Shown: piece by piece, positions 1 to 57,300 of the stretch | Numbering within the stretch: position 1 is the first letter of the stretch | Layout: each line of letters opens with the position of its first letter | Source of the DNA: Mustelus asterias | Taxonomy: Eukaryota | DNA: 64,000 nucleotides | Direction of reading: 5' to 3' | NCBI RefSeq assembly: GCF_964213995.1 | Contig: NC_135821.1 | Coordinates: forward strand, 56,730,001-56,794,000 | Made by a program: the position numbers and the translations under genes | Notes under the pieces: model-generated | Databases searched by the model: none | What the model was told of the DNA's origin: nothing | What the model saw: the letters and a program-made list of their open reading frames with translations, nothing else

Positions 1-1376
1 GGTACATTTCCCAAAAACATGATGTTCTCTGAATATGTTTATTCCTACATTCAGTAACTTTTAGTCTGCACCTTCACATCATTTCAGACGGAGAGTCACC
101 AAGTATCAGTTACAGGGATTGCTGTAATATGAGTTGGATGCAATTCAGAGTTTGCTCACTCTGTCCAATTCTTTGTCAACATTCATTAAACCTTAACCTT
201 GTTAAACCACTCCACTCTATGCCGTCTCCGGGAGTAATTGCCTGCTTAGTGGTATACCGTGGTCTTTTTTGGGTGGTGCCTTTTAGACGTCAAGAGTTGG
301 AATTAAACTGCACAAAATAATTACGCGTAGTATCCTGATTTATAATTTTTAATAAATAAATGACTGATGTCAGATAATCATGTAAAACAATATCTCAAAG
401 ATGTAGTGTCGCTCGCTTTGAGAACAGCGTTACTGCTGTAATACAGAAGAATTGGCAATGAGGGTTAACCTTTAGATAAGGTTAAGATAAAGAGGGTTAT
501 AACTAATAGCCTGTATAATCCTTTGAGGACTGCATTACTACAACTCTTACGCCTAAGTACTTTAGGCATTTCCATTACTTACTATAGTTGTTGGTTTAAT
601 TTGTAGGGAAATAGCGAAAGCTCTGAAAAATTAATGTGAATTGCATCAGCGTTCTTCAATTTCAATATCATACCTTTCTCAGCCAAAGCTCTTTAAGAAG
701 AGAAGGATAGTATTAAGTGTTCAATTACCAAACTGCAACTTGGCCTCACATATAAGCAAAACATTCAGTCCAATGATATGAAATATCTATTTGGTCTTAA
801 GCTGATTTTAGGGGTTTTTTTATCAGTAGAAATTACATGAGATTAGCACTTTCATATAAAGACCGATCTTGGCTGTTCCACATCACACCTGTTCACCAAG
901 AGATCAGGAAGGGACTTGTTCAAAGGAACGAATTGCTGTTGTTGAACAGACATAAAAACGGCTCTTGTGACAGATTCTTGTGCAGGAGCCAAAACCAACA
1001 TCAAACCATCGTCACATTATTTGGTAAAAGAGCAGCAGATCTTTGTCCAACTGTGAGAACTCTGATCAGGTTTAACTCAATCCAGAATCATTTCCTTTAA
1101 TGTCTGGATTTAAATCAAGAGCATGTAACTAAGACATCAAAACAGGTTCTTCAGTCGATTCCATTTAAGTAAAAACAGGACAGGTTGGTATCCGAATTTG
1201 TAGCACAAGGACCTGGCACACACATAGTTAACATGGGACTGAACACAGTACTGCCCACAGAGTGATGTAAGAGAATAGATGACCCGCACCTAGGGTGTCA
1301 GCCTGCTGTTGATCAGAGCCATGTGCACAAGCAAGCAAGCAGTTCCTAGCTTGAACCCTTTACTGTATACATGTAA

Positions 1377-1428
1377 AGGTAAAGTTGGCATAGTTCCAGA
1401 TGACTGGTGGTGATTTAACCTGAGGATC
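1377..1428 (-). mobile_element. SINE-like repeat, left part (split by the CR1 insertion; continues 7566-7690)
   Basis: ...ctggtggtgatttaacctgagGATC joins GATCaccacccctcaggtgaggggaaaggttgag at 7566, reconstituting a common shark SINE-like repeat (recalled). Confidence 0.65.
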
Positions 1429-3200
1429 TTTGTTGTTTGGATTTAATATCAGTTGTTTGGATTTAATCTCAGTTGTTTGGATTTAATATCAGTTGTTGTG
1501 GATTTAATCTCAGTTGTTTGGGTTTAATCTCAGTTGTTTGGGTTTAATATCAGTTGTTTGGGTTTAATGTCAGTTGTTTGGGTTTAATCTCAGTTGTTGT
1601 GGATTTAATATCAGTCGTTTGGGTTTAATCTCAGTTGTTTGGATTTAATATCAGTTGTTTGGATTTAATCTCAGTTGTTTGGATTTAATATCAGTTGTTG
1701 TGGATTTAATCTCAGTTGTTTGGGTTTAATCTCAGTTGTTTGGGTTTAATATCAGTTGTTTGGGTTTAATGTCAGTTGTTTGGGTTTAATCTCAGTTGTT
1801 GTGGATTTAATCTCAGTTGTTGTGGATTTAATCTCAGTTGTTTGGGTTTAATCTCAGTTGTTTGGGTTTAATATCAGTTGTTTGGATTTAATATCAGTTG
1901 TTTGGGTTTAATCTCAGTTGTTTGGGTTTAATCTCAGTTGTTTGGGTTTAATCTCAGTTGTTTGGGTTTAATATCAGTTGTTTGGGTTTAATCTCAGTTG
2001 TTTGGGTTTAATCTCAGTTGTTTGGGTTTAATATCAGTTGTTCTGGGTTTAATCTCAGTTGTTTGGGTTTAATCTCAGTTGTTTAGGTTTAATCTCAGTT
2101 GTTTGGGTTTAATCTCAGTTGTTTGGGTTTAATATCAGTTGTTCTGGGTTTAATCTCAGTTGTTTGGGTTTAATATCAGTTGTTTAGGTTTAATCTCAGT
2201 TGTTTTGGGTTTAATCTCAGTTGTTTTGGTTTAATCTCAGTTGTTTGGGTTTAATCTCAGTTGTTTAGGTTTAATCTCAGTTGTTTGGGTTTAATCTCAG
2301 TTGTTTGGGTTTAATATCAGTTGTTCTGGGTTTAATCTCAGTTGTTTGGGTTTAATATCAGTTGTTTAGGTTTAATCTCAGTTGTTTTGGGTTTAATCTC
2401 AGTTGTTTGGGTTTAATCTCAGTTGTTTGGGTTTAATCTCAGTTGTTTGGGTTTAATCTCAGTTGTTTGGGTTTAATCTCAGTTGTTTGGGTTTAATCTC
2501 AGTTGTTTGGATTTAATGTCAGTTGTTTGGATTTAATGTCAGTTGTTTGGATTTAATCTCAGTTGTTTGGGTTTAATCTCAGTTGTTTGGGTTTAATCTC
2601 AGTTGTTTGGGTTTAATCTCAGTTGTTTGGGTTTAATCTCAGTTGTTTGGGTTGAATCTCAGTTGTTTGGGTTTAATCCCAGTTGTTGTGGGTTTAATCT
2701 CAGTTGTTTGGATTTAATCTCAGTGGTTTGGATTTAATCTCAGTTGTTTGGGTTTACTCTCCGTTATTTGGGTTTAATCTCAGTTGTTTGGGTTTAATCT
2801 CAGTGGTTTGGGTTTAATATCAGTTGTTTGGATTTAATCTCAGTTGTTTGGATTTAATCTCAGTTGTTTGGGTTTAATCTCAGTTGTTTGGGTTTAATCT
2901 CAGTTGTTTGGGTTTAATCTCAGTTGTTTGGATTTAATCTCAGTTGTTTGGATTTAATCTCAGTTGTTTGGGTTTAATATCAGTTGTTTGGGTTTAATAT
3001 CAGTTGTTCTGGGTTTAATCTCAGTTGTTTGGGTTTAATCTCAGTTGTTTGGGTTTAATCTCAGTTGTTCTGGGTTTAATCTCAGTTGTTCTGGGTTTAA
3101 TCTCAGTTGTTCTGGGTTTAATCTCAGTTGTTCGGGTTTAATCCCAGTTGTTTGGGTTTAATCTCAGTTGTTTGGGTTTAATATCAGTTGTTAATATCAG
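1429..3200. repeat. Minisatellite, 20-21 bp unit CAGTTGTTTGG(G/A)TTTAAT(C/A)T, roughly 87 copies
   Basis: Directly visible tandem array with variant units and higher-order block duplication. Confidence 0.98.
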
Positions 3201-3531
3201 GGATTTGTTCCCAGGAGCAGGCTGAGGGTAAGAGAGTGGGTTTTCTGACTTTAATTAATTATTTATTTTTTCAGTTAATTTTGGGTTTAAAATCGGAGGT
3301 TTTTTTCAAAACCGGAAGTCGGGCCAGGAGAGGCCTGGGGAAGTTTTTGGAGGGTTTAAAAGCGCACCAAAGTATACAGCGGGCAGCATCGTAGCGGGCA
3401 GCAGAGTGAGTGGGAAGTTGAGTGAGCTGTCAGGGCTTTGGCTCACAGGGCTTGGACGAGCAGGGGTGAGTTTTTGTTTCCTTACACTCTTATTAACTTT
3501 TCACTGTCTTACTTGACATAAAGTGTCCAGT

Positions 3532-4462
3532 ATGAGTGTGAAACCAGTGTGTTGTTCCCAGTGTAGGATGTGGGAGGTCCTGGAGGCATCTGGCCTCCCG
3601 GACATCCACATCTGTGAGGGGTGTGTCGAGCTGCGGTTCCTGAGGGACCGTATTAGGGAGCTGGAACTGCAGCTCGAGGATCTTAGGCTGATGAGGGAGA
3701 ATGAGGAGGTGATAGACAAGAGCTATCATCAGGTGGTCACACCAGGGCAACGGGAGGAGGCCAAGTGGGTGATGGCCAGGAAGGGTAAGGCTAGGGTGGT
3801 TGAGAGCACCCCAGTGGATTTGCCCCTGCACAACAAGTACTCCTGCTTGAGTACTGCTGGGGGGGGACAGCCCGCCTGGGGGAAGCAGCAGTGGCCGTGT
3901 CTCCGCAGTGGAGTCCAGCCCTGTAACTCAGAGGGCTAAGGAAAAGAGGAGGAAGGCGGTATTAATCGGGGACTCGATGGTGAAGGGGAGTGACAGGCGT
4001 TTCTGCGGAGGTAGGCGGGATTCTCGCATGGTGGTCTGCCTCCCTGGGGCCGGGATCCAGGATGTCGCTAGTCGCGTCCCGGAAATCCTGAGGTGGGAGG
4101 GAGAGGAGCCTGAGGTAGCGGTACATATTGGTACCGCTGATGTGGGTAGGAAGGGAGAAGGGGTCATGAAAAGGGAGTACAGGGAATTAGGGAGACAGCT
4201 GAGAAAGAGGAAAGCAAAGGTAGTAATCTCAGGATTACTGCCTGTGCCACGGGAAGGTGAGGGCAGGAATGGAGTGAGGTGGAAGATGAATGTGTGGCTG
4301 AGGGACTGGTGCAGGGGGCAGGGATTCAGGTTCCTGGACCATTGGGACCTCTTTAGGGGCAGGGGTGATCTGTATACAAAAAACGGGTGGAACTTGAATC
4401 ACACGGGGACCAATATCCTGGCCGGTAGGTTGGCTAAGGTTACTGGGGAGAATTTAAACTAG
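3532..4462 (+). CDS. CR1 ORF1 (Cys-finger/leucine zipper + SGNH esterase), broken by one frameshift at G8 run 3859-3866
   Basis: CSQC...CEGC followed by heptad leucines; esterase blocks LIGDSMV, HIGTAD and late GWNLN in the +1 frame. Confidence 0.9.
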
Positions 4463-4467
4463 ATAGG

Positions 4468-7400
4468 TTGGGGGGAGGGGAGCTAGAAGAGTTGACTAGG
4501 ATCAAGGAACTAATTGATGGGGTGGAGGATGCAGGGGTAAGGGGAATTACAAAATTAATGGTAGAGGAGAGGGTGCAAGTGAATGAAGGCGGTAATTTAG
4601 ATAAGGGAGTAGAGGGAGAGGGTGTTCGCGACTCATCAAAGCGGGTCCAGATAAAAGCTGGAATAAGGACACTTTGCCTGAATGCACGAAGCATTCGGAA
4701 CAAGGTAAATGAGTTGATGGTGCAAATCAGCACAAGTGGGTACGATCTAGTGGCCATTACAGAAACGTGGCTGAAAGGTGACCAGGACTGGGAGATGAAT
4801 ATCCAGGGGTATCAGGCGTTTAGGAAGAATAGACAGGAAGGAAAAGGTGGTGGGGTCGCGCTATTAATAAGAGATAATATCAGGGTAGTACTGAGGGATG
4901 ACATAGGCTCTGAGGAACAAAACGTGGAATCATTATGGGTAGAGATGAGGAATAGTAGAGGGAGAAAGACACTAGTAGGTGTGGTATATAGGCCCCCAAA
5001 TAATAATGTTGAGGTAGGGAGGGCTATAAACAAGCAGATAAGGGATGCGTGTAAAAACGGAACGGCAATAATCATGGGGGACTTCAACATGCACATTGAC
5101 TGGCAGACTCAAGTCGGTAAGGGTGGAATGGAGGAAGAGTTCTTAGAATGCTGTCGGGATAGTTTCCTTGAACAGCATGTTACGGAACCGACGAGGGAAC
5201 GAGCTATTTTGGATCTGGTATTGTGTAACGAGGTAGGTAGAATTAAGGATCTTATTGTGAAGGACCCTCTTGGGTCTAGTGACCACAATATGGTCGAATT
5301 TCTGATTCAGATGGAAGAGGAGAAAGTTTGGTCCCAAACCAGTGTCCTCTGTTTGAACAGAGGGAAATATGATAGGATGAGGGATGAATTGGCTAAGGTA
5401 GACTGGGAGAGCAGGCTGGCAGGTAGGATAGCTGAGGAACAGTGGAGGATTTTTAAGGAGATCCTTTTCAGTTCTCAGCAAAAATATATTCCAGCAAAAA
5501 ACAAGGATTGTAAGAAAAGGGAGAACCAGCCGTGGATAACGAAGGAAATAAAGGAGAGTATTAAAATAAAAACAGCTGCGTACAGAGTGGCCAAAAATAG
5601 TGGAGAAACAAGTGATTGGGAAAAATTTAAGAAACAACAAAGAGAGACTAAGAAAGCGATAAAGAAAGGAAGGATAGACTATGAAGCTCGGCTAGCAATT
5701 AATATAAAAAATGATAGTAAAAGTTTTTATAAATATATAAAAAGGAATAGAGTGGCTAGAGTGAATGTTGGACCCTTGGAGGACGAGAGGGGGGAGTTAA
5801 TAGTGGGAAATGAGGATATGGCTGAGTCTTTAAATAAGTTTTTTGTGTCGGTCTTCACGGTGGAGGACACAAATAGTTTGCCAAATATTAACGATAGAGG
5901 GTTGGCAGCAGGAGAAATACTTAATACCATTAATGTTACCAGAGAGGCAGTGCTGGGTAGACTAATGGGACTGAAGGTGGATAAGTCCCCGGGTCCGGAT
6001 GGAATGCATCCCAGGGTATTGAAAGAAATGTCAGAGGTAATAGTGGATGCGTTAGTGATTATTTATCAAAACTCGTTGCATTCTGGGGTAGTGCCGGTTG
6101 ATTGGAAAACGGCTAATGTTACGCCGCTGTTTAAAAAAGGAAGGAGACAAAAGGCGGGTAACTATAGGCCGGTCAGCTTAACGTCTGTAGTAGGGAAAAT
6201 GCTGGAATCCATTATTAAAGAGGAGATAGCAGGGCATCTGGATAGAAATGGTTCGATCAATCAGACGCAGCATGGATTCATGAGGGGAAAGTCGTGCTTG
6301 ACGAACATGTTGGATTTTTATGAAGATGTGACTAGGGCGGTTGATGGAGGAGAACCGGTGGATGCGGTGTTTTTGGATTTCCAAAAGGCGTTTGATAAGG
6401 TGCCCCATAAAAGGCTACTGAAGAAGATTAGGGCACACGGAGTTGGGGGTAGTGTGTTAAAGTGGATTGGGGACTGGCTATCCGACAGGAAGCAAAGAGT
6501 CGGAATAAATGGGTGTTTTTCCGGTTGGAGGAAGGTGACTAGTGGCGTGCCGCAGGGATCGGTACTCGGGCCGCAACTATTTACCATTTATATAGATGAT
6601 CTGGAGGAGGGGACGGAGTGTAGGGTAACGAAATTTGCAGACGACACAAAGATAAGTGGAAAAGTGAATCGTGTGGAGGACGGAGAAGATCTGCAGAGAG
6701 ATTTGGACAGGCTGAGTGAGTGGGCGAGGATATGGCAAATGGAGTATAACGTTGATAAATGCGAGGTTATACACTTTGGAGGAAATAATAACAAATGGGA
6801 TTACTATCTCAATGGAAACAAATTAAAACATGCTACCGTGCAAAGGGACCTGGGGGTCCTTGTGCATGAGACGCAAAAGCCCAGTCTGCAGGTACAACAG
6901 GTGATCAAGAAGGCAAATGGGATGTTGGCCTATATTGCGAAGGGGATAGAATATAAAAGCAGGGATGTCTTGATGCACCTGTACAGGGCATTGGTGAGGC
7001 CGCAGCTGGAATACTGTGTGCAGTATTGGTCCCCTTATATGAGGAAGGATATATTGGCATTGGAGGGAGTGCAGAGAAGGTTCACCAGGTTGATACCGGA
7101 GATGAGGGGTTTGGATTATGAGGAGAGGCTGAGGAGATTGGGTTTGTACTCGTTGGAGTTTAGAAGGATGAGGGGGGATCTTATGGAGACTTATAAGATA
7201 ATGCGGGGGCTGGATAGGGTGGAGGCGGAGAGATTCTTTCCACTTAGTAAGGAAGTTAAAACTAGAGGACACAGCCTCAAAATAAAGGGGGGTCGGTTTA
7301 AGACAGAGTTGAGGAGGAACTTCTTCTCCCAGAGGGTGGTGAATCTCTGGAATTCTCTGCCCACTGAGGTGGTGGAGGCTACCTCGCTGAATATGTTTAA

Positions 7401-7473
7401 AACGCGGATGGATGGATTCCTGATCGGTAAGGGAATTAAGGGTTATGGGGATCAGGCGGGTAAGTGGTACTGA
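4468..7473 (+). CDS. CR1 ORF2: APE endonuclease + reverse transcriptase, uninterrupted
   Basis: LNARS, ITETW, MGDFN, SDHN (APE); NYRPVSLTS, DFQKAFD, GVPQGSVLGP, FADD (RT). True start codon uncertain (first ATG 4558). Confidence 0.97.
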   Translation: MGGGELEELTRIKELIDGVEDAGVRGITKLMVEERVQVNEGGNLDKGVEGEGVRDSSKRVQIKAGIRTLCLNARSIRNKVNELMVQISTSGYDLVAITETWLKGDQDWEMNIQGYQAFRKNRQEGKGGGVALLIRDNIRVVLRDDIGSEEQNVESLWVEMRNSRGRKTLVGVVYRPPNNNVEVGRAINKQIRDACKNGTAIIMGDFNMHIDWQTQVGKGGMEEEFLECCRDSFLEQHVTEPTRERAILDLVLCNEVGRIKDLIVKDPLGSSDHNMVEFLIQMEEEKVWSQTSVLCLNRGKYDRMRDELAKVDWESRLAGRIAEEQWRIFKEILFSSQQKYIPAKNKDCKKRENQPWITKEIKESIKIKTAAYRVAKNSGETSDWEKFKKQQRETKKAIKKGRIDYEARLAINIKNDSKSFYKYIKRNRVARVNVGPLEDERGELIVGNEDMAESLNKFFVSVFTVEDTNSLPNINDRGLAAGEILNTINVTREAVLGRLMGLKVDKSPGPDGMHPRVLKEMSEVIVDALVIIYQNSLHSGVVPVDWKTANVTPLFKKGRRQKAGNYRPVSLTSVVGKMLESIIKEEIAGHLDRNGSINQTQHGFMRGKSCLTNMLDFYEDVTRAVDGGEPVDAVFLDFQKAFDKVPHKRLLKKIRAHGVGGSVLKWIGDWLSDRKQRVGINGCFSGWRKVTSGVPQGSVLGPQLFTIYIDDLEEGTECRVTKFADDTKISGKVNRVEDGEDLQRDLDRLSEWARIWQMEYNVDKCEVIHFGGNNNKWDYYLNGNKLKHATVQRDLGVLVHETQKPSLQVQQVIKKANGMLAYIAKGIEYKSRDVLMHLYRALVRPQLEYCVQYWSPYMRKDILALEGVQRRFTRLIPEMRGLDYEERLRRLGLYSLEFRRMRGDLMETYKIMRGLDRVEAERFFPLSKEVKTRGHSLKIKGGRFKTELRRNFFSQRVVNLWNSLPTEVVEATSLNMFKTRMDGFLIGKGIKGYGDQAGKWY

Positions 7474-7565
7474 TCCACGTCAGATCAGCCATGATCTTAT
7501 TGAATGGCGGGGCAGGCTCGAGGGGCTAGATGGCCTACTCCTGCTCCTATTTCTTATGTTCTTAT

Positions 7566-7690
7566 GATCACCACCCCTCAGGTGAGGGGAAAGGTTGAGA
7601 ACGCTTCATGAATAATGGGTACAGGAACTGAACCCACGCTGTTGGCATTGCTCTGAATCACTTAACCAGCAATCCAGCCAACCAACTCCC
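7566..7690 (-). mobile_element. SINE-like repeat, right part
   Basis: Continuation of 1377-1428; minus strand has B-box-like GGGTTCAGTTCC. Confidence 0.6.
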
Positions 7691-7695
7691 CACCC

Positions 7696-8452
7696 GTAGA
7701 GAATCTGGTGAACTGGTGCAATGACAATAATCTCGACCTCAATGTCAGTGAAACGAAGAAGACAGTCATCGACTTCAGGAAGTGTGCTGGAGGACATGCC
7801 CCTGTCTACATCAATAGGGATGAAGTGGAAATGATCGAGAGTTTCAAGTTTCTAGGTGTCCGGATCACCAACAACCTGTCTTGGTCCCTCCAAGCTATAG
7901 TTAAGAAAGCCCACCAACACCTCTACTTCCTCAGGAGGCTAAGGAAATTTGGCATGTCTGCTACGAATCTCACCAACATTTACAGATGCACCATAGAAAG
8001 AATTTTTTCTGGTTGTATCACAGCTTGGTATGGCTCCTGCTCTGCCCAAGACCGTATGAAACTACAAAGGGTCATGAACGCAAACCAGCCTCCCATCCAT
8101 TGACTCTGTCTAAACTTCCTGCTGCCTCAGAAAAGCAACCAGCATAATCAAGGACCTCACACACCCTGGACATTCTCTCTTCCACCTTCTTCTGTCAGGA
8201 AAAAGATACAACAGTCTGAGGACACATACCAACTGACGCAAGAACAGCTTCTTCCCTGCTGCCATCAGACTTTTGAATGGACCTCCCTCGCATTAAGTTG
8301 ATCTTTCTCTACACCCTAGCTATAACACTACATTCTGCACCCTCTCCTTTCCTTCTCTATGAACGGTATGCTTTGGCTGTATAGCATGCAAGAAGTAATA
8401 CTTTTCACTGCATACTAATACATGTGATAATAATAAATCAAATCAAATCAAA
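7696..8452 (+). mobile_element. Rex1/Babar-type LINE, 5'-truncated
   Basis: WCNDNNLDLNVSETK...FKFLGV...LYFLRRLRKFG...CITAWYG; (AAATC)n tail. Confidence 0.85.
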
Positions 8453-9799: not shown

Positions 9800-12700
9800 C
9801 CATTCTCCCACACAATTTGCCTCTGCCCAACACCTAGGGGATGCTTAATACGGAGGGCCTGCCTTATAAAAGGCTCAGGTAAAGAGTTTCAGTTAGAAGA
9901 GCCGGCCATTGCCTGTTACCAGGGGAACTCATACTCAATGAGCCCCACAGGGAGATAAATCAGCGATTCTCCATCAACATCATGGGGGTTATCATACCCC
10001 TCCCCCCTGATTTCGAGGGATCCCCCCCCCCACCACGACAATGGACCCTTTGTCTCTTTGCCAGTTGCCTCATCTCCATTGCTTCTAGGGTCTGGTAGGC
10101 GTGGGGAGGAAATGAGGTGGGGGAGGGAGGTATGTAACAGATAGGTGAATGCCTCTTCTGTGAAGAGCGTCGAAGAGCCACTATAGGGACCATCATCCAT
10201 AGCGACCTCTGACTAGGTGTCTGCCGCCTCTGTCTCCATGTCCGAGCCAGAATCTTTATCGTCCAGATGACTGGCTCTTGAGTTTTTAGAGGGTGAAGTT
10301 TCCCATCCACAGGTCGGCATGAAGGACGCTGACAGTGGCATGTCCGTAGAAACAGTTACCTCTGCGGAGGGTTCCCTGTGATGGAGATGATCTTTGTGCT
10401 TCTTTAAGGTCCTCTCCCTGGTTTTTACCTTATAAGACGCCGGTCCTGTTTTCTCGAGAATAACTCCCGGAATCCATGGAGAGCCATCGCTGAAGTTCCT
10501 CATGTGGATCATATCTCCAGGTTTGAAGTCTCTATCTGATATCTGACCATCAGGCCCCTTTTCTGGGCTTCTTGTTTTAACTCAAAGTTGCCGGCCAACT
10601 TTGGTAATGACAGGCTAAGCCTAGTTCAAAGAAGGCGACCCATCAATAACTCCACTGAGGCTATTTCCTATAGTCCTATAGTTAAAAAGGAGAAGTGCGA
10701 GCTTTGTTCCAAAGAACATATGATTTGTTTCTTCACGACAACTTTGAATGTCTAGACCACCTGTTCAGCCAGGCCGTTTGAGGATGTGCCATATTCCATT
10801 TGTACTCATGAAGGTCTGGAACTCCCTGCTGGTAAACAGGGTCTCGCTGTCTGTCACAAGAACCTCGGCTATACCATATGTACTAAAAGATTTCTTCCAC
10901 AGAGGCAACTGTTTCTGCAGACGCGCCATCGCCATCCAGTGCACTTCGATCCATTTTGAATGGGAGTCATTGAGAATTAAGAACATGGAGTCCATAAATA
11001 AGAACATAAGAAATAGGAGCCCCTCGAGCCTGCCCCGCCATTCAATAAGATCATGGCTGATCTGAAGTGGATCAGTTCCACTTACCCACCTGATCCCTAT
11101 AACCCCTAATTCCCTTACCGATCAGGAATCCATCTATCCGTGATTTAAATGGCCCTGGAAGTCTGCAACCAGGCTGTTGGTGGGACCTCCTGGTTTTCCT
11201 GGCAACTTTTGCACCACTTGGCCAGGTTTTCGATATCACTGTCTATGCCAAGTCACCAGACCTAGCTCCTTGCGAGCATCTTCCTCTTAGAAATTCCTGG
11301 GTAGCCATTGTGCAATTCTTGAAGTATTGGTCACTGGCCTGGATGCAGGACAACCACCTGGGCTCCCCATGAGATGATGCCATCTTCTATACTCAACTCC
11401 TAATATTTAGAGAGATAAGTTCCAAATCCTCCGTCGGACACACTTGTGGTCGACCACTTAGGATGACATGATGTTGGCTTAGTTTTGCCAACATAGAGTC
11501 CTTTTGGGTCCATGCCTGGATTTGCTTGGCAGATACTGCCAGAGTGTCCATGAAGTTCAGAGTCATGAAGACTTCATCCACCTTCAGAGGAGAAGATAGG
11601 CTGGTGAGTAGTGGCAGGCGACTCAAGGCGTCTGCGTTGACTCCATGTCTCCCTGGACGATGTTCTAATATGTATTCATGGGCACATAATAGCAGTGCCC
11701 AATGTTGGATCCAGGCTGATGCGATGAGAGGAATCGCCCTGTCTTCCTTGAGGAGGTCCAACAGAAGTTTGTGATCGGTTACTACAGTGAAATGCCGACC
11801 GTGGACGTACCAGTGGAACTTTTTCACCACGAACACCATGGCCAAACCCTCTTTTTCGATCTGGGCATACTTCCTCTCTGCATCCGTCAGAGTTTGTGAT
11901 GTGTACGTGTACGCTCTGCCCCATCATCCTAACAGTGTGATAATACCATTCCTATCCCATAGGGGGAGGTGTTGCAGGTTACAATGAATAGTCTCAGTGG
12001 CTCACAATGGGTTTGTATATTTGCTAACTGTTGTTTGACATTTGCAAAGGCTTTCTGCTTTTTCTTGTGGCATTTGCCAGGACCATTTCTGATTTTGTTT
12101 TTATGACAGTACATGGAGAGGTGCCAGCAAGGTCACCAAGTTTGATAGGAATTTTCCAGAGTAATATATGAGACCTAGGAAAGATTTCAACACTGTTGTG
12201 TTCGTTGGGTCGCAGCCCCTTTTATGGCCTTCACCTTCTCTTGGACAGGTTGTAATCCATCCTTGTTGACTCTGTACCCGAGATGCATTACCTCGTTAAC
12301 CTGGAACACACATTTTCCCGTTTTAGTCGGACGCCAGAAAGAAGCTTCTGGACTTCCTCCAAACTCTCTCCAAATGAAACTTTGCAGTAGCTGCTGAGAT
12401 TAAAACATCATCCAGATAGACTTCCACTCTGGGCACCCCTTGAAGGATGTTCTCCATCACCCTTTGGAAAATGGCACAAGCCAATGACACCCCGAAGAGC
12501 AAATGAGTATATTCACACTGTCCTTTGTGAGTGTTTACAGTGACATACCACCTGGATGAAACTTCAAGCTCCAGTTGGAGGTAGGCTTGGCTCATGTCTA
12601 CTTTGGAAAATATGTGACCCCAGAGCCAACTTCACAATACAAGTCTTCTATGCGTGGCGTAGGGTATCTGTCCAAGGGGGAGGCTCTGTTGATCATCAAT

Positions 12701-23294: not shown

Positions 23295-23456
23295 AGGATA
23301 GATAAATTTTTGAACAGTAAAGGAATGAGTTATGGTGAGCAGGTGGGTAAGTGGAGCTGAGTCCACGAAAAGATCAGCCATGATCTTATTGAATGGCGGA
23401 GCACACTCGAGGAGCCAGATGGCCTACTCCTGCTCCTAGTTCTTATGTTCTTATGA
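23295..23456 (+). mobile_element. CR1 3' end fragment
   Basis: agatcagccatgatcttattgaatggcgg...ttcttatgttcttatg, as at 7482-7565. Confidence 0.88.
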
Positions 23457-24815: not shown

Positions 24816-24907
24816 GAGTCTCAAAATCCAACGAGCAGCCACCCGAGGAACAGATTTTGAGTTAGATTTTGCTAGTTCCTTGAACAGTCCTTTCTCCTCT
24901 ATATATG

Positions 24908-26383
24908 GCTTTGATATTTGGGTCCTCGCTGTCCACAGGGATAGTGCCAGAGGATGGGAGAATGGCGAATGTTGTTCCTCTGTTTAAGAAAGGGAATAGA
25001 AATGACCCTGGTAATTATAGACCGGTTAGTCTTACTTCGGTGGTTGGTAAATTGATGGAAAAGGTCCTTAGGGATGGGATTTACGACCATTTAGAAAGAT
25101 GCGGATTAATCCGGGATAGTCAGCACGGATTCGTGAAGGGCAAGTCGTGCCTCACAAATTTGATTGAATTTTTTGAGGAGGTAACTAAGTGTGTTGATGA
25201 AGGTAGGGCAGTTGATGTCATATACATGGATTTTAGTAAGGCGTTTGATAAGGTCCCCCATGGTCGGCTTATGATGAAAGTGAGGAGGTGTGGGAGAGAG
25301 GGAAAGTTGGCCGATTGGATAGGTAACTGGCTGTCTGATCGAAGACAGAGGGTGGTGGTGGATGGAAAATTTTCAGATTGGAGGCAGGTTGCTAGCGGAG
25401 TGCCACAGGGATCAGTGCTTGGTCCTCTGCTCTTTGTGATTTTTATTAATGACTTAGAGGAGGGGGCTGAAGGGTGGATCAGTAAATTTGCTGATGACAC
25501 CAAGATTGGTGGAGTAGTGGATGAGGTGGAGGGCTGTTGTAGGCTGCAAAGAGACATAGATAGGATGCAAAGCTGGGCTGAAAAATGGCAAATGGAGTTT
25601 AACCCTGATAAATGTGAGGTGATTCATTTTGGTAGGACTAATTTAAATGTGGATTACAGGGTCAAAGGTAGGGTTCTGAAGACTGTGGAGGAACAGAGAG
25701 ATCTTGAGGTCCATATCCACAGATCTCTAAAGGTTGCCACTCAAGTGGATAGAGCTGTGAAGAAGGCCTATAGTGTGTTAGCTTTTATTAACAGGGGGTT
25801 GGAGTTTAAGAGCCGTGGGGTTATGGTGCAACTGTACAGGACCTTGGTGAGAGCACATTTGGAATATTGTGTGCAGTTCTGGTCACCTCACTATAAGAAG
25901 GATGTGGAAGCGCTGGAAAGAGTGCAGAGGAGATTTACCAGGATGCTGCCTGGTTTGGAGGGTAGGTCTTATGAGGAAAGGTTGAGGGAGCTAGGGCTGT
26001 TCTCTCTGGAGCGGAGGAGGCTGAGGGGAGACTCAATAGAGGTTTATAAAATGATGAAGGGGACAGATAGAGTGAATGTTCAAAGACTATTTCCTCAGGT
26101 GGATGGAGCTATTACAAGGGGGCATAACTATAGGGTTCGTGGTGGGAGATATAGGAAAGATATCAGAGGTAGGTTCTTTACGCAGAGAGTGGTTGGGGTG
26201 TGGAATGGTCTGCCTGCAGTGATAGAGGAGTCAGACACTTTAGGAACATTTAAGCGGTTATTGGATAGGCACATGGAGCACACCAGAATGATAGGGAGTG
26301 GGATAGCTTGATCTTGGTTTCAGATAAAGCTCGGCGCAACATCGTGGGCCGAAGGGCCTGTTCTGTGCTGTACTGTTCTATGT
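24908..26383 (+). mobile_element. 5'-truncated CR1/HER1 LINE with open RT frame to stop at 26311
   Basis: NYRPVSLTS, GVPQGSVLGP, FADD; ttctatgttcta tail; tctatatatg at 24898-24907 and 26384-26393. Confidence 0.93.
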
Positions 26384-27039: not shown

Positions 27040-28505
27040 TAGAATACTTAAAGTCCTGGAAATAGTAGATCCATTGGTCGTTATTTTCCATAATTCTTTG
27101 AACTCTGGACTGGTTCCTACAGATTGGAGGGTAGCTAATGTAAGCCCGCTATTCAAAATGGGAGGTAGAGAGAAAACAGGAAACTATAGACCAGTGAGCC
27201 TAACGTCGGTTCTGGGGAAGTTGCTGGAGTCCATTATCAAGGATTTCATAGCTTAACATTGGGAAAGCAGTGGCATAATCAGACAGTTAACATGGATTTA
27301 CAAAGGGGAAATCATGCTTGACAAATCTATTGGAATTCTTTGAGGATGTTATTAGTAGTGTTGACCGAGGAGAACCAGCAGACGTGGTTTATTTAGACTT
27401 TTGACAAAACATAAGACTATGTAAAGTTAAAACTCATGGAATTGCAGGTAATGTCTTGACATGAATAGAAAACTGGTTAGCAGATAGGAAGCAAAGAGTT
27501 GGCATAAATGGGTCTTTTCTGATTGGCAGGCAGTGACCAGTGGGGTACTACAGGGATCTGTGCTAGGACACCTAGTGTTCACATTGTATATTAATCATTT
27601 GGAAGAGGGAACTAAATGTATTATCCCCAAATTTGCAGATGATAAAGTTGGGTGGGAGGATGAGCTGCGAGGAGGATGCAGAGATGCTTCAGTGTGATTT
27701 GGACAGGCTGTGTGTGGGCATCTGCATAGCAGAAACAGTATAAATGTGGATAAATGTGAGGTTGTCCACTTTGGTAGCAATAATAGGAAGGCAGATGACT
27801 ACTTGAATGGGTGTAATTTGAGAGAGGTGGATACTCAGCGAGACCTTGGTATCCTCGTGCATCAATCACTGAAAGTGCACAAGTACAGCAGGCAGTAAGG
27901 AAGACATAGCAAGAGGATTTGAGTATAGGGATAGGGATGTTTTGCTGCAATTGGATAGGGCGTTTGTGAGGCCACACCTGGAGTATTGTGTGCAGTTTTG
28001 GTGTCCTTATTAGAGGAAGGATGTCCTTGCTATAGAGGGAGTACAGAAAAGGTTTACCAGGCTGATTCCTGGGATGGCATGTCTGTCATATGAGGATGCA
28101 CTAAATTGGTTAGGATATTCACTGGAGCTGAGTGAAAGGGATCTCAGAAACTTATAAAGTTCTAACAGGGTTACACAGGGCAGATTCAAAGAGAATGTTC
28201 CTGATGGTGGGCGAGTCCATAACTTGGTGTCATAGCTTGAGGATAAGGAATAAACCTTTTAGGACTGAGGTGAGGAAAAATTTCTTCACCCAGAGGTGAA
28301 AGTGTGGAATTCACTACCACAGAAAATAGTTGAGGCCAAAATGTTCTTTAATTTCCAGAAGAAATTAGATATGGCTCTTGTGGCTAAAGGGACCAAGGAA
28401 CATGGGGAGGGGGTGGAAAATCAGGATATTGAATTTGATGATCAGAATGAATGGGGGAGCAGGCTCGAAGAGCTCGATGGCCTATTTCTGCTTCTAGTTT
28501 CAATG
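27040..28505 (+). mobile_element. Decayed CR1 LINE
   Basis: DWRVANVSPLFK...NYRPVSLTS, INVDKCEVVHFG, with stops and frameshifts. Confidence 0.9.
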
Positions 28506-35267: not shown

Positions 35268-35893
35268 CTGAGGAAAAAAAAACAAGAACGACTTACTCAA
35301 TTTTAGCGTGCAACTCTTAAGCTTTTAAAGTGCCGATGGGCAATATTAGTACCACTTCACAAGAGATTAACTTCAAAAATAACAAAACAAGTTGAGGCAT
35401 TTGCCAATGAATGGTGGTGTCACATTAATAGACTAATATTTACTGCACTGAAGATATTTAATCCTGTTTATTTTTAGAAAATACAAATGTCATTTTCCTC
35501 ATCACTCCCATAAGTGAGCAGTCAGAGACCCTGCAACTTTAAACATAATACTGGATGATGGATAATACCCAGCTCTTGAACAGAAAGACTTAATTGTGGT
35601 CTTCAGCTCACTGGATATATCACGTGCCCAAGTGCATTTCTTCTCAACTTTGAAAGGCAAAGGAGGCTTTATGGTGTGGCAATGTAAAATACTGTACAAA
35701 ATTATGGACTGGGCTTCTTGCTCAAGGGAAACTAAACTTTTACCCTCAAAGATACCACCATAAAAGAACATTATAACTCCACAGACAAAAATCACATTTT
35801 GACAATACTTTAAAAGACTCACTTTGTATAGAGACATTGTACCAGATTATGTCTCAAATTTTTAAGAGAACACACTGTAAAACTATCTTTTAC

Positions 35894-36781
35894 CTGTCTG
35901 TGTTAAGTGGATTGATCTGTCCCTCGATCTGCTTCGATTTCTTCTGTGAGATGGTGGTGGGGTTCTGCGTGATGGTGGTGGGGTTCTGCGTGCAAAGCCA
36001 TAGTAACTTCGCCGAGGTCTGGATGGAGATCTAGACAATGATCTTGAGCGGGATCTCCTGTATCTCAAGCTGGATCTGGACCTTTGGTATGATCTAGAAG
36101 AGGGTATGTAGCACCTAGATCTGGACCTGTATCTATGCGTCGAATTAGACATCCGATGTCTGGATTGTTGGTAACAAGACCTTGACCAACTTCTAGATCG
36201 GGACCTCGAATAGGTTTGCCTTGATCTTCTGTAGCTCCTCTTCAGTGATGCATATCTGCCTCTTGAAGCTAAAGAGATTTCATCTGAACTTGAACCATAT
36301 CGCTCTGAAGAGACTGAACCTGATCGGGATCTGCCTGCAGAGGACACGGAACGTGAACGAGAGCTTCCTGAAGATGATATCGATCGGGAGAGACCTGAAG
36401 ACGATGTTGAACTTGACCGCGAGCTGCCTGAAGAACATGCTGAACTTGACCGCGAGCTGCCTGAAGAACATGCTGAACTTGATCGGGAGCTATCTGAAGA
36501 TGATATCGAACCTGACCGGGAACTGCCTGAAGATGACTCTGAACTCAATCGCGAGATTTTAGATTTCTTGATGCTAACTGTTCTTGAACGTGATTTTCTC
36601 TCCTCCTTTCCAGTCTTCTGACAAGGAGAACAAAGTCTCAGTTTGTCCACAACAGCAGCTTCATTTTCAGTCTCCTGCTCCTGTGCACATCCAGCTGTTC
36701 CCAACTCCATTTCAATGTCTTGCTCCATTTCTGAATCTGATTTCAGAACATTATCGTATCCTTGTTGCAAATTTGTTTTAT
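35894..36781 (-). CDS. RSRP1: RSRP1 large Ser/Arg-rich exon
   Basis: Open RS-rich frame; tttcag acceptor, gtaaaa donor; 888 nt, phase 1-1. Confidence 0.9.
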
Positions 36782-37834
36782 CTGAAAGATAAATAATCAC
36801 ATTCACATGGCCGTGAACACAAACCTCCATTGAAAACATGAATCTAATCTTGTGTATGGTGCAATAACTGAATTTCAACTGTTATTGCTATTTTCCATTT
36901 TTTTTACACAAAGCTGCAGTCAGTGGTTTAATACTAACCAAACATCATATTAGAGAACCTTAAAACACTTGAGGTTATCCGTCCATCATGATTGTGCTGG
37001 CTCCTCGAAGGAGTTATTTGATTAGTTCCATTTCATGACTCTTTCCCCATAGCTTTGCACACTTTTCATTTTCAAGTACTGCCACAAGAAACAGTTACTT
37101 GACTTGCACTACAAATTTTCAGCACCCTCAACTTTCTCTGTGCCAAGCAGAACAATTGCAGCTTCTCCTGTCTCTCCATTTAACTCACCCCTCATCTATC
37201 AGCAATGAGAGAATTTTAGATCAACTAAGACCCATTTTCATGGATTTGTCTTGCCTGTTGTCGATCTTAACAGGGCCAGTAAATACACTTCAACAGGTGC
37301 AACATGTTTTCATAGTATGTAATGCTACTACAGTACAACATTGCAAAGATGCACTTACTATTCATAGGTGTAAATACTGATGACATGAAACATCAGACGT
37401 TTTAACACTGACCAGCATTAGTAAGTCAGCACTATTTCTGCTATGCATTCACCAAGGAACATTAGCCGCACAATTATTTTGGAAGTGTATTACTTTTCGA
37501 GCACTCAATCAGAAAAATAGCACAAAAGTTCAAGTCACAAACATGTTACCTATTAGAAGCATTAAAAGAATGGTAGATTCTTGAATATCTCACTGCAGCC
37601 CCAAAGAGACACCAGAATGTCTGTGACACTTTTAGGAATACTTAAAATATTTATCCACAACACAAACTCTTACCACAACAAGACCATGCTAATCATTACA
37701 GATCCTCTGATGTGTAAAATGTGCCGCAGTCCAAACACCAAGTACAGATTCTCTTGCGGGCCTCAGGGATTGGCGGAACCACTGATTTTCAAATATAACT
37801 GAAAACAGAAAAATCTAAAAAGAATTAAACTTAC

Positions 37835-37887: not shown

Positions 37888-38859
37888 CTGTTAACACAAA
37901 AAAAATACAAATTTGCAAGTGAGGTTTGGGCAGTTCAGTTTCAAACTATAAGTAATTGCATTGCATTTATAGCAATTAGGAACAAAAAGGTTTTAACACC
38001 AACAGCCTCCATAAACTTCCAGTTCAATTAAAATGAAAAAGTTCCAACCAAACTGAACCAAGTCCTGCTCACACATTACTATTGTTCTCATTGACCTACT
38101 CGCTCTGTGGAAACCTCAAAACTAAAAATGATTTTTAAATTTAAAACCCATTATGGCCTCACCCCATTCCTTCTCTAACCTATTCTACCCCTAAAACACA
38201 CCCTTCAACACATTTTCCTCTGGTTCTGTACACATGGTGCACCCTTCCCTCCTTTTGCCTCGCACATTCAACCATCTAAGCTCTGCATTCCCAAAATCCC
38301 TCAAACGCCTCCTCTCTATCTGACAGTTTGTGATTACCCTGCATATCTTCCGTTAATTTTTGATTACAGCTATGTTAAATGAGTTATATAAAGGGAAGGT
38401 GTTATTATATTGCAGCTTTCATACAATATTTGACAAACATAAAAAAGGAATCAAAGTCAAATAGTGTGCATTTTATTCAGCTACATCAGTGTCACCAGTG
38501 AGTCAATGGCTTTATAGAACTCTACTGCTTGAGAATTGGCCAGAGGGTGGGACTGAGAATGAGGCTGCTGATCCGTGATGAGCCAGCAGCTCAATATAAA
38601 CATCCTTATCCTGTAGAAATAATCTCTCCGTGAAAATTATTACTGTTGTTGACAATGTAATTTGAAGAATATGTGCAACAGGTTAAACTCTCTGCATTTC
38701 ATTTTATGTTATCAACTTGTTTGCATTATGACAATCTAAAAAATGAAACTCCAATAGGCACGTACGCCTTGACATTGACCCCACTCTATCCTGACAATCC
38801 AACCCAATGACTCAGACCCATCACCTGACAACCCAACCCATTGACTCAGACCTTAGCAC

Positions 38860-39625
38860 ACGTCAACCCACCCACTGACTTTAGCCCCTTCGCTCCCAAC
38901 ATTCAAACCCACTGACTTTAACCCCTTCACGCCAATCAAATCCACTGACTTTAACCCCTTCGCTCCCATCAAACCCACTGACTGTAATCCCTTCGCACCC
39001 AATCAAACCCACTGACTGTAATACCTTCACACCCAACAATTAAACCCACTGACTTTAACCCCTTCGCGCCCAGTTAAACCCACTGGTTTTAACCCCTTCG
39101 TGCCCAATCAAACCCACTGACTTTAACCCCTTCACGCCCAATCAAACCCACTGACTTTAACCCTTTCGCGCCAATCAAACCCATTGACTTTAATCCCTTC
39201 GCTCCCAACAATCAATCAATCAAACCCACTGACTTTAACCCCCATCTCCCAACAATCAGCACTGTGGCACAGTGGTGAGCACTGCTGCCTCACAGCACCA
39301 GGGACCCTGGTTCAATTCCAGCTTTGGGTGACTGCGTGGCTTTCCTCCAGGTGCTCCACTTTCCTCGCACTGTCCAAAGATGTGTGGGTTAGGTTGATTG
39401 GCTGTGATAAATTGCTCTTTAGTATCAAGGGGACTAGCAGAGTAAACACTTGGGGTTGTGGAGATAGGACCTGGGTGGGATTGTTGTCAGTGCAGACTCA
39501 ATGGGCTGCGAATGGCCTCCTTCTGCACAGTAGGAATTCTATGATTCTATGAGTCAAACCCAATGACTTTAACGCCTTCACCCCCAACAATCAAACTTAG
39601 ACTATAATCCCTTTGCTCCCAACAT
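38860..39625. repeat. Degenerate ~33-bp minisatellite (aatcaaacccactgactttaaccccttcgcgccc), split by a SINE
   Basis: About 11 units before and 2 after the SINE. Confidence 0.9.
39258..39551 (+). mobile_element. HE1-type V-SINE (internal deletion)
   Basis: Head and attctatgattctatg tail. Confidence 0.85.
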
Positions 39626-39664
39626 CTTGTCTCAGACTCACTTTCTCCCCTAATGCCCCAGCAC

Positions 39665-39889
39665 CTTGTTGTAACCCTGATCCCAGCCCCTTGTTGTAAC
39701 CCTGATCCCAGCCCCTTGTTGTAACCCTGATCCCAGCCCCTTGTTGTAACCCTGATCCCAGCCCCTTGTTGTAACCCTGATCCCAGCCCCTTGTTGTAAC
39801 CCTGATCCCAGCCCCTTGTTGTAACCCTGATCCCAGCCCCTTGTTGTAACCCTGATCCCAGCCCCTTCTTGTAACCCTGATCCCAGCCC
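39665..39889. repeat. Near-perfect 25-bp tandem repeat x9 (cttgttgtaaccctgatcccagccc)
   Basis: Directly visible; one substitution in the last unit. Confidence 0.97.
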
Positions 39890-46790: not shown

Positions 46791-47199
46791 GCCAGATTAG
46801 ATTTGTTCTACCTTTTGGACATTCATGGATTGTAAACTCATGAAGCCTCCTCCTCCTGTTAGTGTTGTAATGTGGCTTCTTTAAGGGGATGTTCACTGAG
46901 GGCCATGTGATCGGGCCGGACACTATGGAATGGCAAATCAGGAAGACAATCAGGTACAAGGGCGTGTATCCCAGGTTGGGGAGGATCCGCAGTTGGAGCT
47001 AGGGAGGAGTGTTGTATAGTTAATTCTGTCTGACCCTTAAATGTGCTGACCAAGGCAAAAGCGGGTTGCAAGACGTGCCAAGTAAGATAAACCATTTGTG
47101 CCAGGAAACAGCTGTTGTGAAGAATAGCCTGAGTATGGGTGCACCAGAGCTTAAAAAAGGAATACAGCATTAAGGGCAGAAGCTTGTCTTTGATGTGGG

Positions 47200-47783
47200 A
47201 GTCCCCCCATGCCAACACTATAGTTAAGAAAGCCCACCAACGCCTCTACTTTCTCAGAAGACTAAGGAAATCTGGCATGTCAGCTACAACTCTCACCAAC
47301 TTTTACAGATGCACCATAGAAAGCATTCTTTCTGGTATCGCAGCTTGGTATGGCTCCTGCTCTGCCCAAGACCGCAAGGAATTACAAAAGCTCGCGAATG
47401 TAGCCCAATCCATCATGCAAATCAGCCTCCCATCCATTGACTCTGTCTACACTTCCTGCTGTCTGGGCAAAGCAGCCAGCATAATTAAGGACCCCACGTG
47501 CGCCGGACACACACTCTTCCACCTTCTCCCTTCAGGAAAAAGATACAAAAGTCTGAGGTCACATACCAACCGACTCAAGAACAGCTCCTTCCCTGCTGCT
47601 GTCAGACTTTTGAATGGACCTACCTTGCATTAAGTTGATCTTTCTCTACACCCCTTAACTATGACTGTAACACATTCTCCACTCTCATTTTCTTCTCTAT
47701 GAACAGTATGTTTTGTCTGTATAGCGCGCAAGAAACAATACTTTTCATTGTATGTTAATACATGTGACAATAAATCAAATCAA
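47200..47783 (+). mobile_element. Rex1/Babar-type LINE 3' fragment
   Basis: KKAHQRLYFLRRLRK...RLKNSSFPAAVRLLN; aaatcaaatc tail. Confidence 0.88.
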
Positions 47784-56340: not shown

Positions 56341-56826
56341 TTATCTTCCCGAGCGAACTAATCCGGGTCTGGAAGGCACCATCATGGGCCGGTGAGGCCC
56401 CATCATCGGACCCGGCATCATGGGCATCGGGCCCCCGATCGGCGGTCTCATTCCGGGCCCGACCAGCATCATGCCAGGAGGCGCCGGGCCCATCATCGGC
56501 ATCATAGGTGGCCCCCCCATCGGCGGCCCCGGCAGGATGGCCGGCCGCGGCGGCGGCACGCCCACGTTGCCGGGCGGCGGCGGGATGGCGGCGCCGGCGG
56601 GAGGCGGACCGGCCGGCGCCGGGAAGGGAGCGGTGGGCGGGATCTTGCCCTGGCGGAAAGCGGCGGTGGTCTTATCGATCAGGCTCTGGGCCTGCTCCTC
56701 CATCCATTTCTGATAATAGTCCTTGACGTTCTCCTTGTGCTTGCGGCCCTCGCAGTGGGTCTTGCGGACGGAGGGGGAGTCGTGCGTCAGGTAAGTATCG
56801 CAATAGTCACAGTAATACTTGGGCAT
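56341..56826 (-). CDS. SNRPC: U1 snRNP protein C (U1-C), intronless
   Basis: [34 protein letters not shown] zinc finger plus Pro/Met-rich tail; 161 aa uninterrupted. Confidence 0.97.
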
Positions 56827-56844: not shown

Positions 56845-57300
56845 GGGCTGCGCGCATGCGCTACCTGCTCAGCCGCGCCTTATATACCCCGCGGGGCGGC
56901 TGAGTCACGGGCCGTGACGTCAGACACGAATCACGTGACGACCCGGCCCCGAACGCGCATGCGCATTTCCATCTCGCTGCCGAGGGAGGATTGAGCGTTG
57001 TGTTTTTTTTGCCATCGCAGTTACTGGTGACCGAGCAAGTATGGATTCGTTTCGTCGTAGTGGGGTCGTTTCCTTTAAAGTGTATAACGTGTTCATTTCG
57101 CGTGTTTGATTTCCATTTTGTTCTTGTTGTTCACGGCGATATTCTGAGCCGTTGCCATAGGGTTCGTCGCAGCTTTGGGGTGCGCGCATGCGCCCCTCCC
57201 CCTCAGTGGGAGATGTAGTTTTGGGCACGACTGGGCTTAGCCTTAGGGAAGGAGTGGGAGTCCTGCAGGACTATAAATCCCAACAACACCGTAGGGCCTA
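56845..57300. promoter_or_regulatory. CpG-island promoter of SNRPC, possibly bidirectional
   Basis: TATATAA (minus 56886-56880); GCGCATGCGC x3 (56852, 56955, 57184); TGAGTCA 56901; TGACGTCA 56915; CACGTG 56932; ZNF143-like 57207-57219 and 57270-57282. Confidence 0.88.

Follow-up and report, generated by a model that had tools for sequence, protein, structure and literature searches.

The L1 long interspersed nuclear elements (LINEs) of mouse and rat have, upstream of a tether and the first open reading frame (ORF1), tandemly repeated units that each span about 200 bp, vary in number and can be lost in daughter copies; these monomers are CpG-island-like, contain YY1 sites and are mostly present in 2-5 copies, and the passages that describe them mention no additional, kilobase-long array of a 20-bp unit of the kind reported here (PMC5381506; 10.1101/2022.08.06.500894). 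Among CR1-type elements, the 5' untranslated region (UTR) of turtle CR1 and of a CR1-like element of pufferfish is described as containing E boxes and direct repeats of 32 bp (cited in PMC2734521), and some CR1-group elements that lack ORF1 are reported to have, close to the 5' UTR, 1-5 subunits that are 100-500 bp long (PMC13343379, the main text of which, as consulted, does not use the words 'tandem', 'satellite' or 'promoter'). We analysed a window of 64,000 nucleotides from Mustelus asterias (contig NC_135821.1, positions 56,730,001 to 56,794,000, forward strand; all positions below are those of this window), in which a nearly intact CR1 element lies directly 3' of an array of 87 units of 20 bp, both inside a GATC duplication. 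This element shares short direct repeats and E boxes at its 5' end with the turtle and pufferfish elements, whereas its repeat unit is 20 bp, occurs in 87 copies and lies upstream of a separate 184-bp monomer (PMC2734521). The monomer is a tandem 5' subunit within the size range of those of the ORF1-less CR1 group, although the element here has an esterase ORF1 (PMC13343379). It also fits the rodent layout, in which units of about 200 bp stand in tandem ahead of an unrepeated tether, though here in a CR1 and with a putative promoter role.

Tandem repeats borne by transposons include the 5' hexamer and variable number tandem repeat of SVA, and HER1 is a CR1-type LINE. Both HER1 and the short interspersed nuclear element (SINE) HE1 occur in sharks and rays (PMC3747384), and HER1 can be likened by its description to the present element, as a LINE family of cartilaginous fishes (PMC3747384). 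Transposon-derived tandem repeats are well known, examples being chicken HinfI/SCR1, from the CR1 3' UTR and ORF2, and a 52-bp SINE minisatellite of Xenopus (PMC9659126, PMC6947457, 10.1101/2021.10.18.464293). Like these, the present array is a tandem repeat that arose from a retroelement and is carried or was seeded by one; it differs from them in that its unit comes from the 5' end and lies inside a nearly intact autonomous element. The original prediction knew of no array this long for CR1, a remark that holds only in part, short 5' repeats having been reported in CR1-type elements, though none with about 87 units was found. Our literature search, which had Repbase, Dfam, subscription papers and supplements outside its scope, found neither a kilobase-long 5' minisatellite in CR1 nor a mention of this 20-bp repeat. 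What is new here is the tandem 184-bp monomer and the array upstream of it, short repeats in CR1 5' UTRs being already known.

On balance, the observations tip towards an explanation in which the 20-bp array belongs to the 5' leader of a CR1 family of cartilaginous fishes and arrived here together with a young copy of that family. The parts of the locus are as follows.

1370-1424 (outer edge approximate), minus strand: left flank, taken to be the 3' portion of a SINE-like repeat that the insertion interrupted, with a 9-bp inverted repeat shared with the right flank
1425-1428, plus strand: target-site duplication GATC, left copy; ATCT is in register with the end of an array unit, a possible microhomology
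1429-3200, plus strand: 20-bp minisatellite (87 units at 1432-3192, then a partial unit to 3200)
3205-3361, plus strand: single copy of the 184-bp 5' monomer (157 bp here; in relatives 27 further letters follow, then the unit restarts)
3271-3294, plus strand: a worn 20-bp unit within the monomer (score 27, p 0.0035)
3312-3319, plus strand: ETS-type motif CCGGAAGT, a predicted site and the sole match in the window on both strands
3355-3361, plus strand: AT-rich, TATA-like box at the monomer end
3362-3531, plus strand: non-monomer 5' UTR, or tether
3532-4462, plus strand: ORF1, with a Cys-rich N-terminus, a coiled-coil-like stretch and an SGNH esterase, its frame broken by one extra G
4438-7473, plus strand: ORF2 (first ATG 4558), AP endonuclease and reverse transcriptase, 1011 codons open from stop to stop
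7474-7566, plus strand: 3' UTR, ending in (TTCTTATG)2 at 7551-7566
7566-7569, plus strand: target-site duplication GATC, right copy
7570-7690 (outer edge approximate), minus strand: right flank, taken to be the body and the tRNA-like head of that same SINE-like repeat

The element has the anatomy of the CR1 superfamily, namely an endonuclease followed by a reverse transcriptase in ORF2 (Pfam Exo_endo_phos, 1.3e-9; RVT_1, 7.5e-33), an esterase-type ORF1 (Lipase_GDSL_2, 1.7e-10; PDB 4c1b, 'ORF1-encoded protein', 3.9e-22), a tail of short repeats instead of poly(A) and a duplication of 3-4 bp. Named near-full-length matches to ORF2 were reverse transcriptase proteins of a ray, a bird, a frog and a turtle at about 40-55% identity, and named relatives came from Hypanus, Mobula and Chiloscyllium, genera that make a shark or ray host very likely. 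The probable assignment to the CR1 clade, rather than to L2 or Rex1, rests on anatomy and host range, because none of the matching reverse transcriptases was labelled CR1 by its source. The ORF1 alignment gave no confirmed relative among 535, 17 and 45 pattern matches in three collections, which hold little vertebrate DNA and are uninformative on this point.

For comparison with other organisms, 23 runs were listed for positions 3147-7900, of which 20 held part and 18 held half or more of its words; the holders came from 10 studies, none was listed as RNA, and all were contigs, which reveal neither transcription starts nor strand. Four of these runs (X1, X4, X8 and X17, representing four organisms and four studies) were aligned on 3147-3950 at 85% likeness. 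Statements about contigs apply among the records listed, beyond which there were a further 3347 records, 187 loose ends and 15 between-letter rows, and X1 and X8 were too complex to decide on a link of the array to the family. ORF1 starts at ATG 3532 and is frameshifted in the window copy by one extra G in a tract of eight (3859-3866); both halves align to three intact relatives, and all four compared runs have one G fewer (X1 77,044/177,072; X4 8.73/8.73; X8 3,610/4,319; X17 35.5/35.5). The extra G is thus a private mutation or a consensus error, and the window copy also has a private substitution at 3652. The copy is young: about 700 bp compared with X4 contigs 17, 18, 21 and 23 differ by only 2 substitutions and 1 gap, and its ORF2 is open. 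Elsewhere in the window, 3' fragments at 11018-11149 (minus strand) and 23296-23456 (plus strand) are 94% and 84% identical to the 3' end of this CR1 and have the same tail repeat. A more distant CR1 family is represented by two copies truncated at the 5' end, at 24884-26308 and 27041-28409 on the plus strand, with about 66% DNA identity to ORF2, the first being open for 475 codons.

The anatomy of the insertion is of the type produced by target-primed reverse transcription. As predicted, GATC is duplicated at both junctions (1425-1428 and 7566-7569), where it is the only word of at least four letters common to the two. Because the G at 7566 doubles as the last base of the (TTCTTATG)2 tail, the effective duplication is 3-4 bp, which falls within the peak of 3-5 bp described for CR1/L2 target-site duplications (PMC4245944, in the part consulted). 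Four duplicated letters are by themselves weak evidence for a boundary. The claim that the flanks rejoin into one SINE has indirect support only: a 9-bp inverted repeat pairs the left and right flanks, a length reached by 12 of 5000 random window pairs, and the hairpin of the rejoined flanks folds better than 98.9% of controls in which the left flank was joined to random sequence, but the reverse folding control was not significant (15.8%). By its likeness to A and B boxes, the right flank seems to resemble the head of a tRNA-type SINE on the minus strand; ARAGORN gave no tRNA match, and Rfam gave no structured RNA match on 1000-8000. The left-flank pattern matched only itself in the window and had no match in genome and viral contigs, which contain little vertebrate DNA and are uninformative here. 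Folding of the UTR start was unremarkable (z 0.04), as was that of the 3' end (z -0.91); 100 nt of the array folded with z -2.6, to which we attach no interpretation.

The predicted array of about 87 units 5' of the LINE UTR was recovered by Tandem Repeats Finder at 1432-3192 (period 20, 87.3 copies, 93% matches), followed by the UTR and the CR1. It contains no N, has 33% GC and 3 CpG in 1761 bp, and carries the E-box CAGTTG at 83 unit junctions. Each unit also contains TCAGTT, which we take to be initiator-like and regard as a weak lead. Seven unit types recur, with at least 4 copies each, in addition to 11 singletons, and variants are clustered by position, GGATT-type units making up 11 of the first 22 units and 1 of the next 22. 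Two blocks of 8 units are exactly duplicated (1432/1634 and 2058/2240; 178 and 181 bp), an extent reached in none of 1000 unit shuffles. On sequence likeness, the 20-bp unit is homologous to the copy at 3271-3294 in the 5' UTR of the CR1 itself, none of 340 background windows reaching a score of 26 against the unit. The array lies, as first proposed, most probably within the inserted segment, at the 5' end of the element. The array may have a regulatory function of its own, a putative role that we consider somewhat doubtful. Array patterns had 0 matches in metagenome, viral and prokaryote-genome contigs, collections with little vertebrate DNA that are uninformative in this respect.

Other short repeats in the window were compared with the unit. 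Within 38793-39258, a 34-bp array at 38870-39208 (9.9 copies, 83%) lies beside a seeming tRNA-type SINE head and has a weak minus-strand likeness to the 20-bp unit; it was rejected as a relative of the unit (score 25 with a 5-bp gap, a partial likeness, with no CR1 ORF1 adjoining). Matches of 11-12 bp to the unit near 12394, 33565 and 51601 are at background level.

The monomer downstream of the array is tandem in two other organisms, as seen directly in X8 and deduced in X4. A contig of X8 (depth 266.5) reads to 3361, continues with 27 other letters and restarts at 3205, giving a tandem unit of 184 bp. Record 17 of X4 fits 3205-3320 and has 57 unlisted letters; if 30 of these are put on 3332-3361 (57 = 27 + 30), three observed depths are reproduced (25.62 versus 25.6, 34.9 versus 34.8 and 35.49 versus 35.4), whereas placing the letters on the array junction or nowhere does not reproduce them, and, within the rows listed, the depth of bin 3363-3389 is accounted for by no placement. 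In X1, the monomer has a median point depth about two times as high as the tether. The window copy has one monomer only, with the array upstream. We presume that the motif CCGGAAGT is of ETS type. From the AT-rich box it is 34 bp to the start of the following monomer; the box is weak evidence by itself because such a motif is common, with 174 matches in the window. The earlier suggestion of a monomer-type 5' promoter is right in kind, the family having a tandem 184-bp monomer, and probably names the wrong unit. The 20-mer is not a CpG-rich unit of about 200 bp or more that contains a whole promoter, and the 184-bp unit is the better candidate for an L1-like promoter monomer.

Two further observations concern the 5' UTR in the compared runs. 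In X4, positions 3291-3361 are covered about two times as deeply as 3205-3290, so that the upstream monomer could be partial and start near the worn 20-bp unit; at a depth of about 10 this may be noise. In X17, which may be an RNA run, a contig begins at 3209 and depth rises after 3363, which we do not use as evidence of a start site, and over 3363-3443 related subfamilies share the tether and differ before about 3371-3374, with TATA-like words in the loose ends. This pattern suggests replacement of 5' UTRs between CR1 subfamilies.

Array-like sequence was present in all four compared runs and was abundant in each. The summed depth of the first array bin exceeded that of the next two UTR bins by factors of 25-28 in X1, 75-88 in X4, 32-42 in X8 and 26-38 in X17, with the reservation that summed depths are not copy numbers and that variable regions are overcounted; absolute depth across the runs spans more than four orders of magnitude. 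Variant units of X1 occur at depths in the thousands, and none of 10 tested words from such variants is found in the window array, so the repeat exists at many other places. Sequence other than array preceded the UTR in none of the 6 loose ends listed for X1.

Together, these observations appear to suggest a leader in two tiers. The CR1 would have entered a SINE-like repeat through target-primed reverse transcription and carried the array along. The first tier would be the 184-bp monomer, with its ETS-type site and AT-rich box, tandem in relatives and putatively acting as a promoter; a transcript started from one monomer may include the following one as a new promoter, in the manner of mouse L1, because the AT-rich box lies ahead of the next monomer's first base. 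The second tier would be a 20-bp segment of the monomer, amplified to an array of variable number in which each unit has an E-box and which lies upstream of the monomer or monomers; the homology of unit and monomer is apparent, and the origin of the array by amplification is a conjecture from it. The array would head at least some donor elements, and the window copy may have been made from RNA begun in or above the array, its 5' end joined to the target at the ATCT microhomology and one monomer kept. The block duplications, which are directly visible, would have set the length of the array, in the donor or at this site. More broadly, and tentatively, an active CR1 family common to many cartilaginous fishes might have a self-renewing, two-tier 5' end in which tandem 184-bp promoter monomers are capped by a kilobase-scale 20-bp E-box array amplified from the monomer, the array being transcribed, retrotransposed and expendable, an enhancer or a reservoir of start sites, and its minisatellite spread to many sites in these genomes.

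Several observations weigh against an array that belongs to the leader of the family. No empty site and no second copy of the interrupted repeat were found in the window or in genome and viral contigs; because the empty site was never seen, the position of the array inside the insertion is likely rather than shown. None of the listed contigs of the four runs bridges array and UTR, positions 3201-3204 in X4 and 3201-3208 in X17 have no cover, and in the readable contigs of X4 and X8 another monomer, not the array, precedes 3205. When the third UTR bin is used, the ratio of the first array bin falls to 10-75, and the compared organisms are close relatives, so that an unlinked satellite could keep a similar depth ratio too. 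The CpG-poor, T-rich array is unlike rodent monomers, an E-box arises by chance in 5% of shuffled units, and there is none in 3193-3531. Linkage of array and UTR across the family, for which no listed contig offers a bridge, is accordingly a conclusion to which we lean by a small amount.

Several of these points suit the best-surviving rival, in which an abundant minisatellite living apart from most CR1 copies, even if born from the monomer, was captured in part by a single donor or in a single insertion event, either through 5' transduction or because the reverse transcriptase switched templates, and replaced the upstream monomers. The monomers before 3205 in X4 and X8 agree with such a capture, as does an odd partial unit at the array/UTR junction (3193-3204), uncovered in X4 or X17, and X1 contains strongly worn array variants (loose-end agreement 0.61-0.63). 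Template switching has been proposed for new 5' ends of rodent L1 and chicken CR1 (10.1101/2022.08.06.500894, in the part consulted). However, the unit is homologous to the element's own monomer, has the same orientation and stands at the 5' end, which makes descent the simpler account, and the depth ratios of array to UTR in the four organisms are of the same order. We regard a single capture as possible, with a minority share of our confidence.

Later growth is unlikely. Here few or no units would have been present on arrival, and the array would have grown or been copied in at the locus by slippage and unequal exchange or gene conversion. The exact internal duplications of 178-181 bp point to recent turnover, and the clustering of variants by position would fit as well; yet this young-looking copy holds seven recurrent unit types and 11 singletons, and because like variants occur in other organisms, an inherited repertoire of units is suggested.

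That misassembly placed an unrelated array next to the CR1 is very improbable. The uncovered positions 3201-3204 in X4 and X17 would be compatible with it, and the homopolymer extra G and the substitution at 3652 could be consensus errors, but the duplication and hairpin match across the whole 6.1-kb segment, the variants are ordered, no N is present and the unit is homologous to the adjacent UTR.

Finally, the idea that the left flank or target site was copied over and over during insertion and so gave rise to the array can be set aside as the least credible, since, for all that 11 of 13 letters at 1412-1424 match the unit, the claimed likeness of that flank is weak and not significant (score 16, p about 0.09, equalled by 7% of background 50-mers) and 28 bp out of the 20-bp register, the UTR of the element holds a better match, and the repeat is abundant in four organisms with X1 variants absent from the window array and was therefore not born at this junction.

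The remainder of the window contains several unrelated features. An intronless ORF resembling U1 small nuclear ribonucleoprotein (snRNP) protein C lies at 56341-56826 on the minus strand (Pfam zf-U1, 6.9e-23). Its frame is uninterrupted between ATG and stop, the sequence upstream is GC-rich, and there is a TATA box near 56885; from its sequence it looks like a live single-exon gene or retrogene. At 35886-36881, also on the minus strand, an open frame of 332 codons contains 33-bp repeats that are Ser/Arg-rich and acidic and has no Pfam match, and is probably a long exon of a host gene. A near-perfect 25-bp array occupies 39657-39889 (9.3 copies, 99%). Decayed pol fragments of a long terminal repeat (LTR) retrotransposon are found at about 9900-11950 on the minus strand (RT_RNaseH, 2.1e-17), interrupted by the CR1 3' fragment at 11018-11149. 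Fragments of the ORF2 C-terminus of another LINE lie at 7666-8103 and 47133-47630 on the plus strand, the first with a Pfam ALKBH8_N match (2.9e-9) and beginning directly after the SINE-like head of the right flank.

CR1-group elements make up 22-34% of shark and ray genomes (PMC13343379, in the part consulted). A LINE has to take its own promoter along when it is copied; for CR1, which is the principal LINE of sharks and rays, the literature consulted says little about how this is achieved. If the array was captured only once, the locus would be a modest example of 5' transduction, and the monomer would remain a useful result. If it is true that the array travels with the family, this would constitute a direct mechanism for dispersing a minisatellite, and consensus models built from short reads would have cut such 5' ends off. 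A tandem 184-bp monomer in a CR1 with an esterase-type ORF1 would be a convergent version of the solution found by rodent L1.

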